Sequence record: OR757434.1
Origin: Escherichia phage vB-EcoP-XT18
Reading direction: 5' to 3' (one strand)
Length of the DNA stretch: 64,000 bases
Part shown: positions 1 through 61,928 of the stretch, piece by piece
How the letters are laid out: every line of letters begins with the position of its first letter
How positions within the stretch are numbered: the first letter of the stretch is position 1
Program-made: the position numbers and the translations under genes
The notes under the pieces: model-generated
Database searches by the model: none
Told to the model about the DNA's origin: nothing
The model's input: only the letters and a program-made list of their open reading frames with translations

Positions 1-885
1 GTGTTGCGGCTTCTGTTGAACATTAAGATTCCATATCCGTGGAAGACTCTGAATGAGATGACCTTCGGTATTCGATGGGGGGAGGTGGTAGCAATCGGTG
101 GTGGTGTAGGTAGTGGTAAAACACTAATTGCTCACGAACTGGTTGCTCATCTGTGCTTAGAGCATGGTTTTAATGGGGGTGGCTTCTTCTTGGAAGAGAA
201 GGTAGGCATGTCTGTTAAGAACATCGCTGGTAAGTCAGCATCAATTCCTTTCCACCGACCTGATGTTGAATATGACGAGGAAGATTTGCGTAATGAAGCA
301 CTTCGTTATGCAGACAAATTCTTCTTGTATGACAACTTTGGGCAGAACGAATGGGAAGACATTAAACAGTGTATCCGTTTCTGGGTAGTTGAAAACCAGT
401 GTAAGTTCATCATTCTTGATAACATTACCGCTCTGGTATCTCATTTAACACCTTCAGAGATTAACACTGAAATCAGTAAGATTGCTTCCGAGCTTGCTGG
501 TATGTGTAAAGAATTAGACTTTACCGCTTTCGTGCTATCTCACCTTAATGCTCCGGCAGGTGGTGCTCCTCACGAAGAAGGTGGACAGGTACGTGAAGTA
601 CAGTTCACTGGCTCTCGTTCTCTTATGCGTTGGTGTCAGTGTATCATTGGCTTTGAGCGTGATAAGCAAGCTGACGGCTTAGCTAAGAACCTCTCAGTCA
701 TTCGATTATTGAAAGAACGTAACTACGGTCAGACTGGTGTCTGTTATACTAAGTATATCAGTGAAACCGGTAGACTTGTAGAAAGGGAAGACTTTGAAGT
801 TGATGAAGATAATCCATTCGTTTTAACTAACGGAGAGGATGCAGCTTCTCTCGTCAACCAAGCAGATGGAGCTTCACCGTGGTAA
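1..885 (+). CDS. DNA primase/helicase, C-terminal DnaB-like helicase domain (5' end lies outside the window)
   Basis: Walker [10 protein letters not shown]; ORF open from base 1; layout like the helicase half of T7 gp4. Confidence 0.8.
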
Positions 886-1433
886 AGAAAAAGAAAGTGT
901 TTGCATTTGATATCGAAAGTAATGCACTATACGATGACATAACTAAAGTATGGTGTATTTACATTTTCGATGTTGAAACTGGTGAAAGGTGGGGCTATCG
1001 GCCTCACCAAATTGAAGATGGGATTCGTAAACTTACAGAAGCTGATGTGCTCGTTGGTCATAACATTATTGACTTTGACTTACCTGCTCTGAAAAAGATG
1101 TATCCCTCTTTGATTAAATATAATTTTAACGTCTTTGACACTTTATGTCTTAGTCGATATCTTAAACCTGACCGTATTGGTGACAGTCCTGAGTACCCGA
1201 AAGGTGACCCTAGACATGGCCCAAGAGGTCATGGCTTGAAGCAATGGGGTGAGTTCTTAGAGGAACTTAAAGGTGATTACGGTGAGCAAGAGGAAGCATG
1301 GGATGCTTTCACTGAAGATATGTTTACTTATTGTGAGCAGGACGTTAACTTAACCGTTAAGGTTTATAAATACTTGTGTGAACTCACAGGATTTGATCCT
1401 TACGACCCACCTTCATTATATTGGAAAATGTAA
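879..1433 (+). CDS. Family-A DNA polymerase, 3'-5' exonuclease domain only (part 1 of a split polymerase)
   Basis: [19 protein letters not shown] and YCEQDV resemble Exo I/II/III motifs and the T7 gp5 N-terminus; ORF stops at the exo/pol boundary. Confidence 0.8.
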
Positions 1434-1434
1434 A

Positions 1435-2796
1435 ATGATTGTTATCCCGATTAACCAAATTGAAGATAAGGTTGCTCAACAACCCGATATCACTGTTGGT
1501 CGTCATTTCATTGAACAGTTGATTAACAACAACTTGGTTCCAGACGGTATCTGTCCCATCATTACTGGTGGGGCTGTTCGTGATGCTGTTATTAATAATA
1601 CAGCTCCGCACGACATTGATATCTTTATCGTCAGAGGGCAAACACCAAGAACACAAAACACTTTCACTTCAGTGGGCCGTTGGCAAGCTCTTGGGAGTGA
1701 ACTTGAAAGCAATGTGAAAGAGTGGCTTGAGTCACAAGATATTGAGTATTCATCTCTTCTTGCTGAAGCTACAGATGAGCCATACGCAGGGACTTCTCGA
1801 TTAACATTCACTGATATCATTGAATTTCAGTGGCATGGAACGCGAATCCAATTCATGTTTAACTATCCCACCTCTATCGAAGAGGTTCTAGATAATTTTC
1901 CTATGATGTGTCGTGGTGCTATGACTCTTGATAAGCTATTCATGACCATTCATGGATATTTGGCTATGACTTCTCCAATTCCAGTGGTTGTGACTGATCG
2001 AGAGATTAAATATGTCCACAAGAAGTGGCCTAATTCACAGGTGCTAAGGTTCCAAACCCCGGGAGTTGCTTTTCATTATATGGCACATGCTCGGCAACAA
2101 CCCATACCTCAGATGGTCAGGGATCTGGTTAATAACCAAGGTCAAGTATATCTTATTGGCGACACAGCAAGTCCTCAATATTGTGTTGACCAAGACATGA
2201 GTCGATTCTTTGGAATCCCTTATGAAGAAATTCAGTTAATGTCAAGTGTTAATGGATCTAGTCGGATTAGTGCGTATTGGTCTGAAGGGTTGACAAACCT
2301 GACAACTAACACAGGAGGAGATCTCCTTGGTCGGGAAGAAGAACCTAACCGACACAATGCAATTGAAGGGGTTTTTGTAGCCCCTGCAATGCGCCGAGCA
2401 CAAGAGTCACGAAATCTAAGCTCTACTCGTAGAACATCTTTTGAAGAAACTCTTGGTGTTACTAGCGATTCATTTGAGCGGTGGTTGTCTAGACGTTCTA
2501 ATGGTCAATCAAATGGTTTGACTGTTAGCCGTCACCAGTTCTCTGGTCAGAGTTTAGCTGTTGGTGATAGCAACGCACCTGTTATGGCTGTGTGGACCGA
2601 TGAAGGTGTGGCCCAAGATGTGGTAAGTAGTCTTGATGTCCCTTCTCATGGTGAATTAGCTGAGACCGTCAGCCGCAATCTCGCTGATCGGTTTGTTGCT
2701 AACAACCCTGAAGTATTAGAGCCTCAAACCCGTACAGTTCGGTTTGCCGATGAAGCAGGTCGTGGAATCTCTTTTGACATGGAAACAAACAACTAA
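1435..2796 (+). CDS. Pol-beta superfamily nucleotidyltransferase, CCA-adding enzyme / poly(A) polymerase-like head domain
   Basis: GGAVRD followed by HDIDIF matches the class II tRNA nucleotidyltransferase signature; C-terminal half is S/T/R-rich and looks disordered; start ATG overlaps the exo-domain stop. Confidence 0.55.
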   Translation: MIVIPINQIEDKVAQQPDITVGRHFIEQLINNNLVPDGICPIITGGAVRDAVINNTAPHDIDIFIVRGQTPRTQNTFTSVGRWQALGSELESNVKEWLESQDIEYSSLLAEATDEPYAGTSRLTFTDIIEFQWHGTRIQFMFNYPTSIEEVLDNFPMMCRGAMTLDKLFMTIHGYLAMTSPIPVVVTDREIKYVHKKWPNSQVLRFQTPGVAFHYMAHARQQPIPQMVRDLVNNQGQVYLIGDTASPQYCVDQDMSRFFGIPYEEIQLMSSVNGSSRISAYWSEGLTNLTTNTGGDLLGREEEPNRHNAIEGVFVAPAMRRAQESRNLSSTRRTSFEETLGVTSDSFERWLSRRSNGQSNGLTVSRHQFSGQSLAVGDSNAPVMAVWTDEGVAQDVVSSLDVPSHGELAETVSRNLADRFVANNPEVLEPQTRTVRFADEAGRGISFDMETNN

Positions 2797-2805
2797 GGAA
2801 TAAGA

Positions 2806-3339
2806 ATGAGTTTACTAGGAAGTGTTGAACTGCATGATGTAATTGACAATGGCTATCTGGATGCGGAGCATAAGTATGTTAACGCTGCTAGTGTGGATAT
2901 CCGTATTGGTGATACTATCCTTGTTGAAGAACAGGCTGATGGCATCGTTGATATTGATGCGAAAGAGAATCTTCAGTGGAAGGAAGTAAAAATCCCTGAA
3001 GAGGGCTTGGTTATCACTCCGGGTCAGTTCTTCTTGGCTCACTCTATGGAGGAGTTTAATCTTCCAGATAACATCTCAAGTCTGTTTGTTCTGCGTTCGT
3101 CTATGGCTCGTTGTGGTTTGAACCACCTTCACGCCGGTTGGGCAGATGCAGGATTTAATAGCAGTAAGCTGACATTTGAATTCCATAACGTAACCAAGCA
3201 CCACAGTTTACGAGTTCGTGCTGGTATGCGTGTTGGTCAGATGGTGATGTTTGAGCACTCTCATGCAGGGGAACATTCCTATGCAGTGAAGGGGCGTTAT
3301 AATAACTCTGAAGGTGTAGTTGCATCTAAAGGTGTGTAA
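2806..3339 (+). CDS. dcd: dCTP deaminase
   Basis: ASVDIRIGDT, RSSMARCGL and YNNSEGVVASKG align by eye with E. coli Dcd motifs. Confidence 0.8.
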   Translation: MSLLGSVELHDVIDNGYLDAEHKYVNAASVDIRIGDTILVEEQADGIVDIDAKENLQWKEVKIPEEGLVITPGQFFLAHSMEEFNLPDNISSLFVLRSSMARCGLNHLHAGWADAGFNSSKLTFEFHNVTKHHSLRVRAGMRVGQMVMFEHSHAGEHSYAVKGRYNNSEGVVASKGV

Positions 3340-4231: not shown

Positions 4232-4558
4232 ATGTTAGATTTGAGTAAAGTGGCCCCGCCCACTGAAGAGATTACAAAATCCAAGGTGATGCAACAGTTT
4301 TATCATCGTGATATGCTTGGTCGCTTTATCAAGAATCGTGATGTTGTTGCTTGGTCTATTGGTAATCAAGGATATCTGTTGAAGGTTCTTCAGGTTACAG
4401 GTTCAACTGCTAAGCGAGTTAAGGTGTATGACCCTGAAATGGGGCGTTCTAAGTCAGTAGACCCGCAGAACTGCATCGTAATTACCCAGCAGGTGATAGC
4501 AAATCTAGAAAGAAATGTAGCAAACTCTACTGAGTTAGAAGGAGAAGACCCTAAGTGA
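4232..4558 (+). CDS. hypothetical protein
   Basis: ORF with GGAG-type RBS. Confidence 0.45.
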   Translation: MLDLSKVAPPTEEITKSKVMQQFYHRDMLGRFIKNRDVVAWSIGNQGYLLKVLQVTGSTAKRVKVYDPEMGRSKSVDPQNCIVITQQVIANLERNVANSTELEGEDPK

Positions 4559-5049
4559 TTCCAAAGGAATTGGAAGGGAAGATTGATGTAACAGAGGATG
4601 GTAGAGTATTTACTATAAAAAGTGGAAGGTTTTTAACCCTCCACACTAATGGTGCCTATTACAGAGTTACTATTTACTTTCCTGAAGGATTAAAGAATTT
4701 CTATGTCCACAGGCTGGTTGCTAGTAAGTACATACCGAACCCTGATAATCTTCCATGTGTCAACCATAAGGATGGCAATAAACTTAACAATCATAAAGAT
4801 AATCTTGAATGGTGTACCCACCGAGAAAACTCTCAACATGCATCATCATTAGGTCTGATGGTACAGAGGTTTGGAGAAGACAATCCGCAGTCTAAACTTA
4901 CTCTAGAAGATGTAGAGTACTGTAGGAGAGTTTATATCCCTCGAGATAAAGAGTTTGGAGGCTCTGCCCTTGCAAGACGTTTTGGTGTCTCTCAGCAAGT
5001 GATATCAAAAGTTCTACTTAATCAAACTTGGAGGGAATATAATGCATAA
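4555..5049 (+). CDS. HNH homing endonuclease with C-terminal HTH
   Basis: VNHKDGNKLNNHKDNLEWCTHRENSQH; paralog of 41312-41824. Confidence 0.8.
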   Translation: MIPKELEGKIDVTEDGRVFTIKSGRFLTLHTNGAYYRVTIYFPEGLKNFYVHRLVASKYIPNPDNLPCVNHKDGNKLNNHKDNLEWCTHRENSQHASSLGLMVQRFGEDNPQSKLTLEDVEYCRRVYIPRDKEFGGSALARRFGVSQQVISKVLLNQTWREYNA

Positions 5050-5605
5050 GAATGTTTTTGATTTACCTGAGATTGGTCGTGCCGAATATAATATGTTAGA
5101 CCGATCAGAGCTTTCAATCTCTCGCCTTGAAACAATGCAGGGTATGATTAGTGGAAACAGCCTAGAACACATCCTGAGCTGCTTACAAGCTAACATAGAA
5201 CTCTTGCATATCAAAGCTAAAAACTACCATTGGAACGTCTCTGGTGCAGGATTTCAGGGTGTTCATGGTATGTTTGATGAGCTGGAAGATTACGCACGAC
5301 AAGTAGGAGATCGTATTGCTGAACGTATGCGTTACCACTGTGTTAAAGTGGACGCCACAGCAGCCAATTATCTCTCCCATGCTTGGTTCTCAGAGGGTAA
5401 TGCTGACCTAGATATGGACGGTATGCTCTCTGATATGTGCATGACCTTGATGTGTATTATTGAGAAGATGGATGAGTTTGATGGTGATTTAGCCACTTAT
5501 CCAGTTGATCAGAGTATGCTTCAAGAAATTAATGAAGGTCTTGGCAAGTATTGCTACTTCGTCAAGAGCAACATGTCCCACTCAAGTGGCGATGTGTCTT
5601 ACTAA
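5042..5605 (+). CDS. Dps/ferritin-like protein
   Basis: KNYHWNVSGAGFQGVHGMFDELEDYARQVGDRIAER resembles the Dps core HWN..G..F..H..F.E....D.IAER. Confidence 0.6.
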   Translation: MHKNVFDLPEIGRAEYNMLDRSELSISRLETMQGMISGNSLEHILSCLQANIELLHIKAKNYHWNVSGAGFQGVHGMFDELEDYARQVGDRIAERMRYHCVKVDATAANYLSHAWFSEGNADLDMDGMLSDMCMTLMCIIEKMDEFDGDLATYPVDQSMLQEINEGLGKYCYFVKSNMSHSSGDVSY

Positions 5606-61853: not shown

Positions 61854-61928
61854 GTCCCTATAGTTAAAAGGATATAACAGATTTCTTCTAAAAATCCATT
61901 CTAGGTTCGAGTCCTAGTGGGGACGCCA
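61854..61928 (+). tRNA. tRNA-Arg (anticodon UCU) with encoded CCA
   Basis: hand-folded cloverleaf: 7-bp acceptor stem with one G-U, D arm GTTA/TAAC, anticodon stem GATTT/AAATC with loop CTTCTAA, T arm CTAGG-TTCGAGT-CCTAG, discriminator G. Confidence 0.8.

Follow-up and report, generated by a model that had tools for sequence, protein, structure and literature searches.

A phiEco32-like phage nucleotidyltransferase with predicted remote kinship to the anti-Gabija protein Gad2

Gad2 is a 400-amino-acid (aa) anti-Gabija protein of Bacillus phage SPbetaL7, whose deletion makes the phage sensitive to Gabija; AlphaFold predicts a nucleotidyltransferase domain in it, and the preprint describing it leaves its mechanism undetermined (bioRxiv 10.1101/2023.05.01.538930). 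Two other described groups are relevant here: the class II nucleotidyltransferases, which include the CCA-adding enzymes and poly(A) polymerases such as PcnB, and the small nucleotidyltransferases of Autographiviridae collected in PHROG 1614. We compared with these systems a gene near the start of a 64,000-nucleotide (nt) stretch of Escherichia phage vB-EcoP-XT18 (OR757434.1; this whole stretch is referred to as the window), which encodes a nucleotidyltransferase (NTase) orthologous to gp73 of phage phiEco32. Its annotation as a nucleotidyltransferase was already known, as was the class II CCA-type domain assigned to it in some records, including the SU10 paper (PMC4281155) and the NJ01 GenBank records. 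New are the absence of the features that define CCA enzymes and PcnB, the narrow distribution and strict synteny of the gene, its unusual evolutionary rate, and its link to Gad2. A literature search found no functional study of gp73-like proteins, of PHROG 1614 proteins or of the mechanism of Gad2. We tentatively favor the reading that this is a replication-linked, Gad2-like NTase with a predicted counter-defense role, in which it would shield replicating phage DNA from host nucleases.

Kinship with Gad2 and PHROG 1614 proteins

The phiEco32 ortholog gp73 is annotated as "nucleotidyltransferase", and the window protein matched PHROG 12715, which bears the same annotation, over its full length (E 1.2e-241; residues 1–453 against profile positions 1–457 of 457). 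Orthologs with 74–89% identity were present in about 69 Kuravirus records. Among the 44 closest Kuravirus homologs, 30 carried a precomputed match to Pfam PF26128, "Gad2 (weak)", and none was found on the SU7 clade. A Gad2 profile was then built from 80 loci with homologs of the Gad2 N-terminal domain, which were reduced to a non-redundant alignment of 52 sequences. Comparison of the NTase profile with the Gad2 N-terminal domain by hhalign gave a probability of 91.6% and E 8.1e-7 over 135 columns, covering aa 41–212 of the window protein; the score was 52.8, as against 26.8 for a reversed control (12 columns) and 16.5 or less for 20 column shuffles. Both proteins present the same order of elements: a helix and a GGA loop come first, [ND]-D-x-D-I-[FY]-F and the [IL]-Q-[LM]-[IM] strand next, and F-[DP] with C/M-x-G-A after it last. 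They also share an aromatic-Pro pair. Both are phage-encoded, and both lack the RR and ED of class II enzymes. Gad2 itself gave a weak alignment of about 138 columns with class II enzymes, in which its FDFT faces RRDFT and the ED pair of motif D is missing from Gad2. A tblastn search of the window revealed no canonical Gad2 gene, and a Gad2 match in the 77-kb "Escherichia phage 19-1-2" was rejected as a kuravirus case, the sequence being a Vequintavirinae scaffold.

PHROG 1614 was matched both by the window protein (3.6e-7) and by Gad2 (8.2e-6), as well as by gp16 of Pseudomonas phage LKD16 (9.5e-40), a Sulfitobacter phage protein (6.6e-11) and the distant NTase of contig L016 (2.1e-9), which fits PHROG 1614 better than PHROG 12715. 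Structure matches in BFVD led to the same small podovirus proteins of the PHROG 1614 type. In common with the window NTase, the PHROG 1614 proteins of Autographiviridae, such as LKD16 gp16 (199 aa), have GGAxRD followed by PxDID, an N-terminal helix and a head-only architecture. They differ in being about 200 aa long and having no long tail, and the profile alignment is limited to the motif A region (27–40 columns). The gene for LKD16 gp16 also lies in a replication block, directly after the replicative helicase gene, but it is flanked by a ligase gene rather than by genes for an exonuclease and a deoxycytidine triphosphate (dCTP) deaminase. In all three annotations that were read, related NTase genes occupied replication or recombination blocks, with the order helicase–NTase–ligase in LKD16 (L018, 9703–10302), nuclease–NTase–single-stranded DNA-binding protein in Streptococcus thermophilus phage SW22 (L037, 970–1476), and repair protein–NTase–exonuclease in Sulfitobacter phage NYA-2014a (L039, 361–1332). 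By profile comparison, the window NTase is a remote relative of Gad2 and the PHROG 1614 proteins within the catalytic domain only, a statement of kinship and not of shared function.

Family conservation and comparison with class II enzymes

When 1.84 billion representative proteins were searched in HMMER with a profile of the first 269 residues (E ≤ 0.001), only 31 proteins were retrieved, and canonical CCA enzymes or PcnB accounted for none of the 31; a further homolog search with a diverse profile mostly returned the same kuravirus proteins. The NTase family, with members of 274–490 aa, is very small and is confined to phiEco32-like phages. Twenty-five diverse members are 20–33% identical to the window protein, and G45, G46, R49, D50, D60, D62, F64, Y117, I128, Q139, P156, Y193 and K197 are invariant in all of them, those from G45 to F64 being invariant also in an alignment of 56 sequences. 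Because the GGAVRD and HDIDIF residues are invariant at such low identity, they are not a chance occurrence. Each of the 25 members has D or E at position 127, whereas position 130 (E in the window protein) varies among E, Q, D, N and S; judging from strand order, D127 is probably equivalent to E79 of the Bacillus stearothermophilus CCA enzyme. The conserved core comprises about 205 residues, and the part downstream of it (66–287 aa) is variable in length and sequence, with in-frame insertions and deletions. An earlier reading, made from the letters without database searches (the sequence-only reading), had placed the open reading frame (ORF), its position directly after the exonuclease gene and both motifs correctly, but its 55-aa N-terminal extension was not borne out: 44 residues precede the GG pair, and they are modeled with confidence as a strand and two helices and are conserved family-wide. 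Since Gad2 and the B. stearothermophilus CCA enzyme also have a stretch before the GG, we regard these 44 residues as part of the domain and not as an extension.

The NTase is an expressed protein under purifying selection, with its catalytic carboxylates D60, D62 and D/E127 intact. One peptide of the ortholog was detected by mass spectrometry in the proteomic study of SU10 (PMC4281155). A catalytically dead or purely structural protein appears extremely unlikely: the absence of motifs B and D, described below, is all that speaks for it, while the metal-binding and glycine-loop residues are all invariant over deep divergence and the ratio of nonsynonymous to synonymous substitution rates (dN/dS) is about 0.1 in the head.

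An AlphaFold model was obtained from the 56-sequence alignment; an alignment of 9 sequences had given an unusable predicted local distance difference test (pLDDT) score of 52.6. In the model, pLDDT exceeded 85 for nearly all of aa 1–290 and was below 50 for aa 291–408. The best 36 matches of a Foldseek search of the PDB were class II enzymes only. Two class II entries scored 7.7 and 7.6 in the structure comparison, the best matches outside class II being TENT5C (7.4), TENT5B (7.1) and the cGAS/DncV-like nucleotidyltransferase (CD-NTase) CdnE (7.0). Residues 1–290 are thus predicted to form a class II (CCA-adding/poly(A) polymerase) nucleotidyltransferase fold, and the structural matches and the invariant motif A agree with the sequence-only reading in placing the head domain in the class II clade. 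That reading had named a best match to CD-NTases and the loss of a catalytic Asp as outcomes that would contradict it; both were looked for and neither was found, as CD-NTases, which have the pol-beta-type catalytic core in common with the NTase, gave no best structural or sequence match and no association with cyclic oligonucleotide-based antiphage signaling systems was seen.

The C-terminal tail, which had been described as rich in Ser, Thr and Arg, is indeed enriched in these residues (11, 7.4 and 9.8%, respectively), but it is equally enriched in Glu and Val. Its 163 residues include 16 Arg and no Lys, in a genome of 41% G+C, and its net charge is −8. Tails throughout the family show the same strong excess of Arg over Lys. 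The idea of a basic RNA-binding tail was rejected on the grounds of the composition. Distant members repeatedly show a loose [WY]-[ST]-x-G-[LR] motif, represented by W282 in the window protein, and have aromatic residues at the C-terminus or close to it.

With the class II enzymes (Pfam PolyA_pol PF01743; PDB 3aql, 1miv, 4wby, 3h37 and 1ou5), the NTase has in common the head-domain fold and motif A, that is, GGxVRD followed by DxD, at aa 45–50 and 60–62. A class II profile aligned with the NTase profile in motif A alone (24 columns, probability 89%). PolyA_pol scored 17.4 bits with the window protein and 20.7–21.9 bits with its relatives, below the gathering threshold of 23; a search of NCBIfam gave no match even at E 10, and the PDB, searched by sequence and by profile, yielded none either.

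In class II enzymes, the RRD of motif B reads the ribose 2'-OH. This motif is absent from the NTase family, where the position reads x-[FM]-P without a conserved Arg, and in a Gad2-bridged alignment FP/FDF stands opposite the class II RRDF. Motif D, ED-x-x-R, was not found in the family either; the region holds a conserved R-[DE]-x-x-Y-x-x-K-K-x-P with an uncertain helix register, and the ED pair is deleted in the bridged alignments. A manual mapping of EDxxR onto E190/Y193 was dropped, as the profile alignments put the helix elsewhere. The NTase has no body and tail domains for tRNA binding; in the model, their place is taken by a helical segment, which is short and lineage-specific, and by an acidic tail predicted to be disordered. 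Unlike class II enzymes, the NTase is also acidic overall and has a helical insert at aa 80–100, and it is encoded in a DNA-replication block. On these features, neither "class II CCA-adding enzyme" nor "tRNA nucleotidyltransferase" is a justified label for the NTase or for similar small phage proteins. Several databases apply the label "tRNA nucleotidyltransferase" to small proteins of the Gad2-like or PHROG 1614-like type.

These comparisons bear directly on the two functions proposed in the sequence-only reading, which had connected the gene with a phage tRNA-Arg(TCT) at 61854–61928 (+) and suggested that it repairs or matures tRNA 3' ends or polyadenylates RNA. The tRNA gene was confirmed, but neither function found support. 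Rebuilding of the CCA of host or phage tRNAs cut by host nucleases appears very unlikely because the base-reading and tRNA-holding parts are lost and the gene always lies inside the DNA-replication block, away from the tRNA and early genes. RRD and EDxxR, which define class II nucleotide selection, and the body and tail domains that bind tRNA are missing, the C-terminal part being disordered and acidic; the Pfam match is sub-threshold, NCBIfam gives none, and the exhaustive profile search retrieved no CCA enzyme. Moreover, the tRNA-Arg has a discriminator G followed by a genome-encoded CCA, and thus requires no CCA synthesis for its maturation. Tailing of RNA in the manner of PcnB, in which untemplated A or other tails would be added to host or phage RNAs and alter their stability, is quite unlikely: although the head fold is that of the class II enzymes, PcnB has a basic C-terminal RNA-binding region and the class II neck and body, and neither is present in the NTase.

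Replication block, evolutionary rate and restriction resistance

The order helicase–exonuclease–NTase–dCTP deaminase (DCD) was kept in 15 of the 15 distinct phiEco32-like contexts examined, which include metagenomic contigs whose NTase is only 22–30% identical to that of the window. The exonuclease and NTase genes were separated by 0–4 nt in six of the seven lineages measured and by 23 nt in the remaining one. Within this fixed arrangement, the NTase gene varies far more than any other gene of the replication block, despite purifying selection on its catalytic core: in distant genomes, identity to the window proteins was 81–85% for the helicase, 75–80% for DCD, 56–59% for the exonuclease and 26–33% for the NTase. 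Among kuraviruses, dN/dS was 0.08–0.13 in the head, 0.26–0.37 in aa 206–290 and 0.36–0.40 in the tail, as compared with 0–0.12 in the neighboring genes. Synonymous divergence reached 0.65–0.74 in the head and 0.65–0.87 in the head plus middle part, but 0.17–0.24 in the tail and 0.10–0.33 in the genes on either side (helicase, exonuclease and deaminase). With synonymous divergence in the NTase head 2–7 times as high as in its neighbors, the pattern suggests recombinational exchange of divergent NTase alleles.

The surrounding genes point to a T7-like replisome: besides the helicase tail, there are a split family A polymerase and a thioredoxin gene of the phage. The primase/helicase C-terminus (window 811–885, +; also the helicase ends of L002, L003, L006, L007, L019 and L020) is, in every lineage examined, an acidic tail ending in SPW, SPF or LPF. 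It resembles the acidic tail of T7 gp4, which, with its C-terminal aromatic residue, docks on the T7 polymerase. The NTase could be a housekeeping replisome accessory with no role in defense, which, tethered to the T7-like replisome by its tail, would act in the processing of genome termini or of primer or DNA 3' ends. Consistent with this, it is a core gene at a fixed position and closely abuts the gene for the exonuclease subunit, the replisome resembles that of T7, and many tails of the family end in or near aromatic residues (e.g. EYDF, WDW, WQW, GGWTF and SPWFGTR). However, very fast divergence and mosaic synonymous rates are unusual for a core replication enzyme, and the tail motifs are only loosely delimited and, in the window protein, do not stand at the very end; T7 itself is not known to need such an enzyme. 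We consider this explanation rather unlikely. The idea that the NTase supplies the polymerase subunit missing from the split family A polymerase was also considered and rejected, as relatives have a separate DNA_pol_A gene (about 611–614 aa) some 8 kb downstream.

Gordonclarkvirinae are unusually resistant to restriction and have no known DNA modification or inhibitor, and the BASEL authors have pointed to the NTase and the dCTP deaminase in this connection (PMC11990801). The window contains 28 EcoRV and 26 HindIII sites, numbers not depleted relative to base composition, as well as 8 EcoRI sites. Other motifs are scarce across the window, including CCWGG (9 observed, about 70–80 expected), the PstI site CTGCAG (0 observed, 10–19 expected) and GATC (131 observed, about 240–280 expected). 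Because 28 EcoRV and 8 EcoRI sites are present, avoidance does not explain the resistance to these two enzymes.

The suggestion of the BASEL authors amounts to a DNA modification pathway, in which a base or precursor would be nucleotidylated or activated by the NTase together with the dCTP deaminase and the virion DNA would become resistant to restriction. It accords with the unexplained resistance, for which these two genes were named, with the insufficiency of avoidance alone for EcoRV and EcoRI, with the adjacency of the NTase and DCD genes in every phiEco32-like genome checked, and with the distant L016 NTase gene, which adjoins a cluster encoding a glutamine amidotransferase, an amidoligase and an ATP-grasp protein. 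On the other hand, a phage ThyX and a deoxynucleoside monophosphate kinase give the deaminase an ordinary role in deoxythymidine triphosphate supply, the annotations showed neither a hydroxymethylase or glycosyltransferase nor any other enzyme known for DNA modification, and many palindromes are depleted anyway, with 688 six-base palindromes observed in the window against 1083 expected. We also know of no class II-type NTase that modifies bases, and a modification pathway of this kind appears unlikely.

The reading that we favor, a Gad2-like NTase with a counter-defense role in phage replication, is put forward because of the kinship with Gad2, the rapid and mosaic evolution of the gene, the resistance of Gordonclarkvirinae to restriction and the presence of 28 EcoRV and 8 EcoRI sites in the window. 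By two-metal chemistry, the enzyme would transfer a nucleotide from a nucleoside triphosphate or a deoxynucleoside triphosphate (dNTP) onto a hydroxyl acceptor, most likely a nucleic-acid 3'-OH arising in phage DNA replication. Loss of RRD would be compatible with the use of dNTPs, and the variable tail may serve as a tether to a partner protein. The host nucleases to be countered may be Gabija or OLD-type systems, or restriction enzymes.

Several observations weigh against a counter-defense role. PADLOC gave no match for the window protein, and a Gad2 hidden Markov model built here matched the window ORFs at E 0.021 only. Gad2 (PF26128; PHROG 18122) reads GGAITS where the NTase family reads GGAVRD, and its folded C-terminal half of about 200 aa has no counterpart in the NTase, the alignments stopping at about residue 170–200 of Gad2. 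The statement that the NTase works like Gad2 by itself predicts little about mechanism. Anti-defense genes are usually accessory; the Gad2 gene is accessory and lies in an anti-defense locus, whereas the NTase gene is a core gene of the replication block, and a core gene at a fixed position is just as compatible with a housekeeping role in replication. All of the closest solved structures belong to enzymes acting on RNA 3' ends, and the acidity of the NTase protein as a whole lends no positive support to nucleic-acid binding.

Gene coordinates, neighboring features and implications

The features of the locus are listed in the table below. The TAA stop codon of the exonuclease gene occupies 1431–1433, and the NTase gene begins one base later, at ATG 1435. 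This ATG is taken as the true start because all homologs begin with M-I-x-I-P, and an in-frame GTG upstream, at 1378, was rejected for the same reason. A hidden gene or another reading frame beneath the tail was also rejected, as there is no competing ORF on the + strand and insertions and deletions among orthologs stay in frame.

Table. Features of the NTase locus in the window (positions in nt)
Feature	Position	Strand	Basis or remarks
Primase/helicase, C-terminal part	1–885	+	Context gene
3'-5' exonuclease subunit, split family A DNA polymerase	879–1433	+	Pfam DNA_pol_A_exo1, E 2e-9; PHROG "DNA polymerase exonuclease subunit"
Nucleotidyltransferase gene, phiEco32 gp73 ortholog	1435–2796	+	453 aa plus stop; ORF list, PHROG 12715
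Conserved catalytic core, aa 1–205	1435–2049	+	N-terminal strand and helices, motif A, acid-bearing strand, IQxM strand, [FM]P motif, R-[DE]-x-x-Y-x-x-K-K-x-P helix
GGAVRD, aa 45–50, first half of motif A	1567–1584	+	Sequence; aligns with GGAVRD of class II enzymes
HDIDIF, aa 59–64; D60 and D62 as metal-binding carboxylates	1609–1626	+	Sequence; D60, D62 and F64 invariant
D127, candidate third catalytic carboxylate	1813–1815	+	D/E in 25 of 25 diverse members; modeled strand 125–133
Folded helical segment (predicted), aa 206–290, lineage-specific	2050–2304	+	pLDDT 76–94; helices 209–220, 247–259 and 263–270; poor conservation between clades
Disordered C-terminal tail (predicted), aa 291–453, S/R/E/V-rich, Lys-free, acidic	2305–2793	+	Predicted model, composition
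dCTP deaminase-like gene (DCD)	2806–3339	+	Pfam DCD, E 3.5e-34; directly 3' of the NTase gene

The first 6 kb of the window are 97% identical to Escherichia phage vB-EcoP-XT73 and 91–96% identical to many other phiEco32-like podoviruses (genus Kuravirus, subfamily Gordonclarkvirinae), and megablast alignments to relatives fell into 2–4 pieces covering 86–91% of this region. Between the gp68-like gene and the Dps-like gene (5042–5605), the window has an ORF of 164 aa at 4555–5049 (+); in phiEco32, the gp68 and Dps-like genes overlap, without an intervening gene. In Bas89 and SU7, HNH homing endonucleases are annotated elsewhere in the block that holds the 4555–5049 ORF. An amidotransferase-type gene cluster lies just upstream of the replication block in two phiEco32-like contigs (L006, 1–7352; L020, 1–5212), with genes for a glutamine amidotransferase, an Amidoligase_2 protein, a COOH-NH2 ligase/ATP-grasp-like protein and a gamma-glutamyl cyclotransferase-like protein; in the more distant contig L016 (76–4881), the same type of cluster is located directly 5' of the NTase-like gene.

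The favored reading can be drawn more sharply, in a form that we regard as speculative and doubtful in its full detail: a Gad2-related NTase, fixed in a T7-like replisome module and perhaps tethered there by its tail, would act on DNA 3' ends or nicks produced by replication, possibly with dNTPs, and would thereby blind nucleases that sense ends or nicks, such as Gabija, OLD-family nucleases and restriction enzymes. If this is true, such a replisome-fixed NTase acting on ends or nicks would explain the broad restriction resistance of Gordonclarkvirinae and would offer a first mechanistic handle on Gad2-type enzymes. Kuraviruses are common Escherichia coli phages that are used therapeutically, and, should the Gad2-like reading hold, the NTase would be a candidate for the mechanism that makes them nearly immune to restriction systems. 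It would then also provide, in the BASEL isolates that infect K-12, a tractable model for a widespread class of phage NTases that includes Gad2, PHROG 1614 and PHROG 4400.

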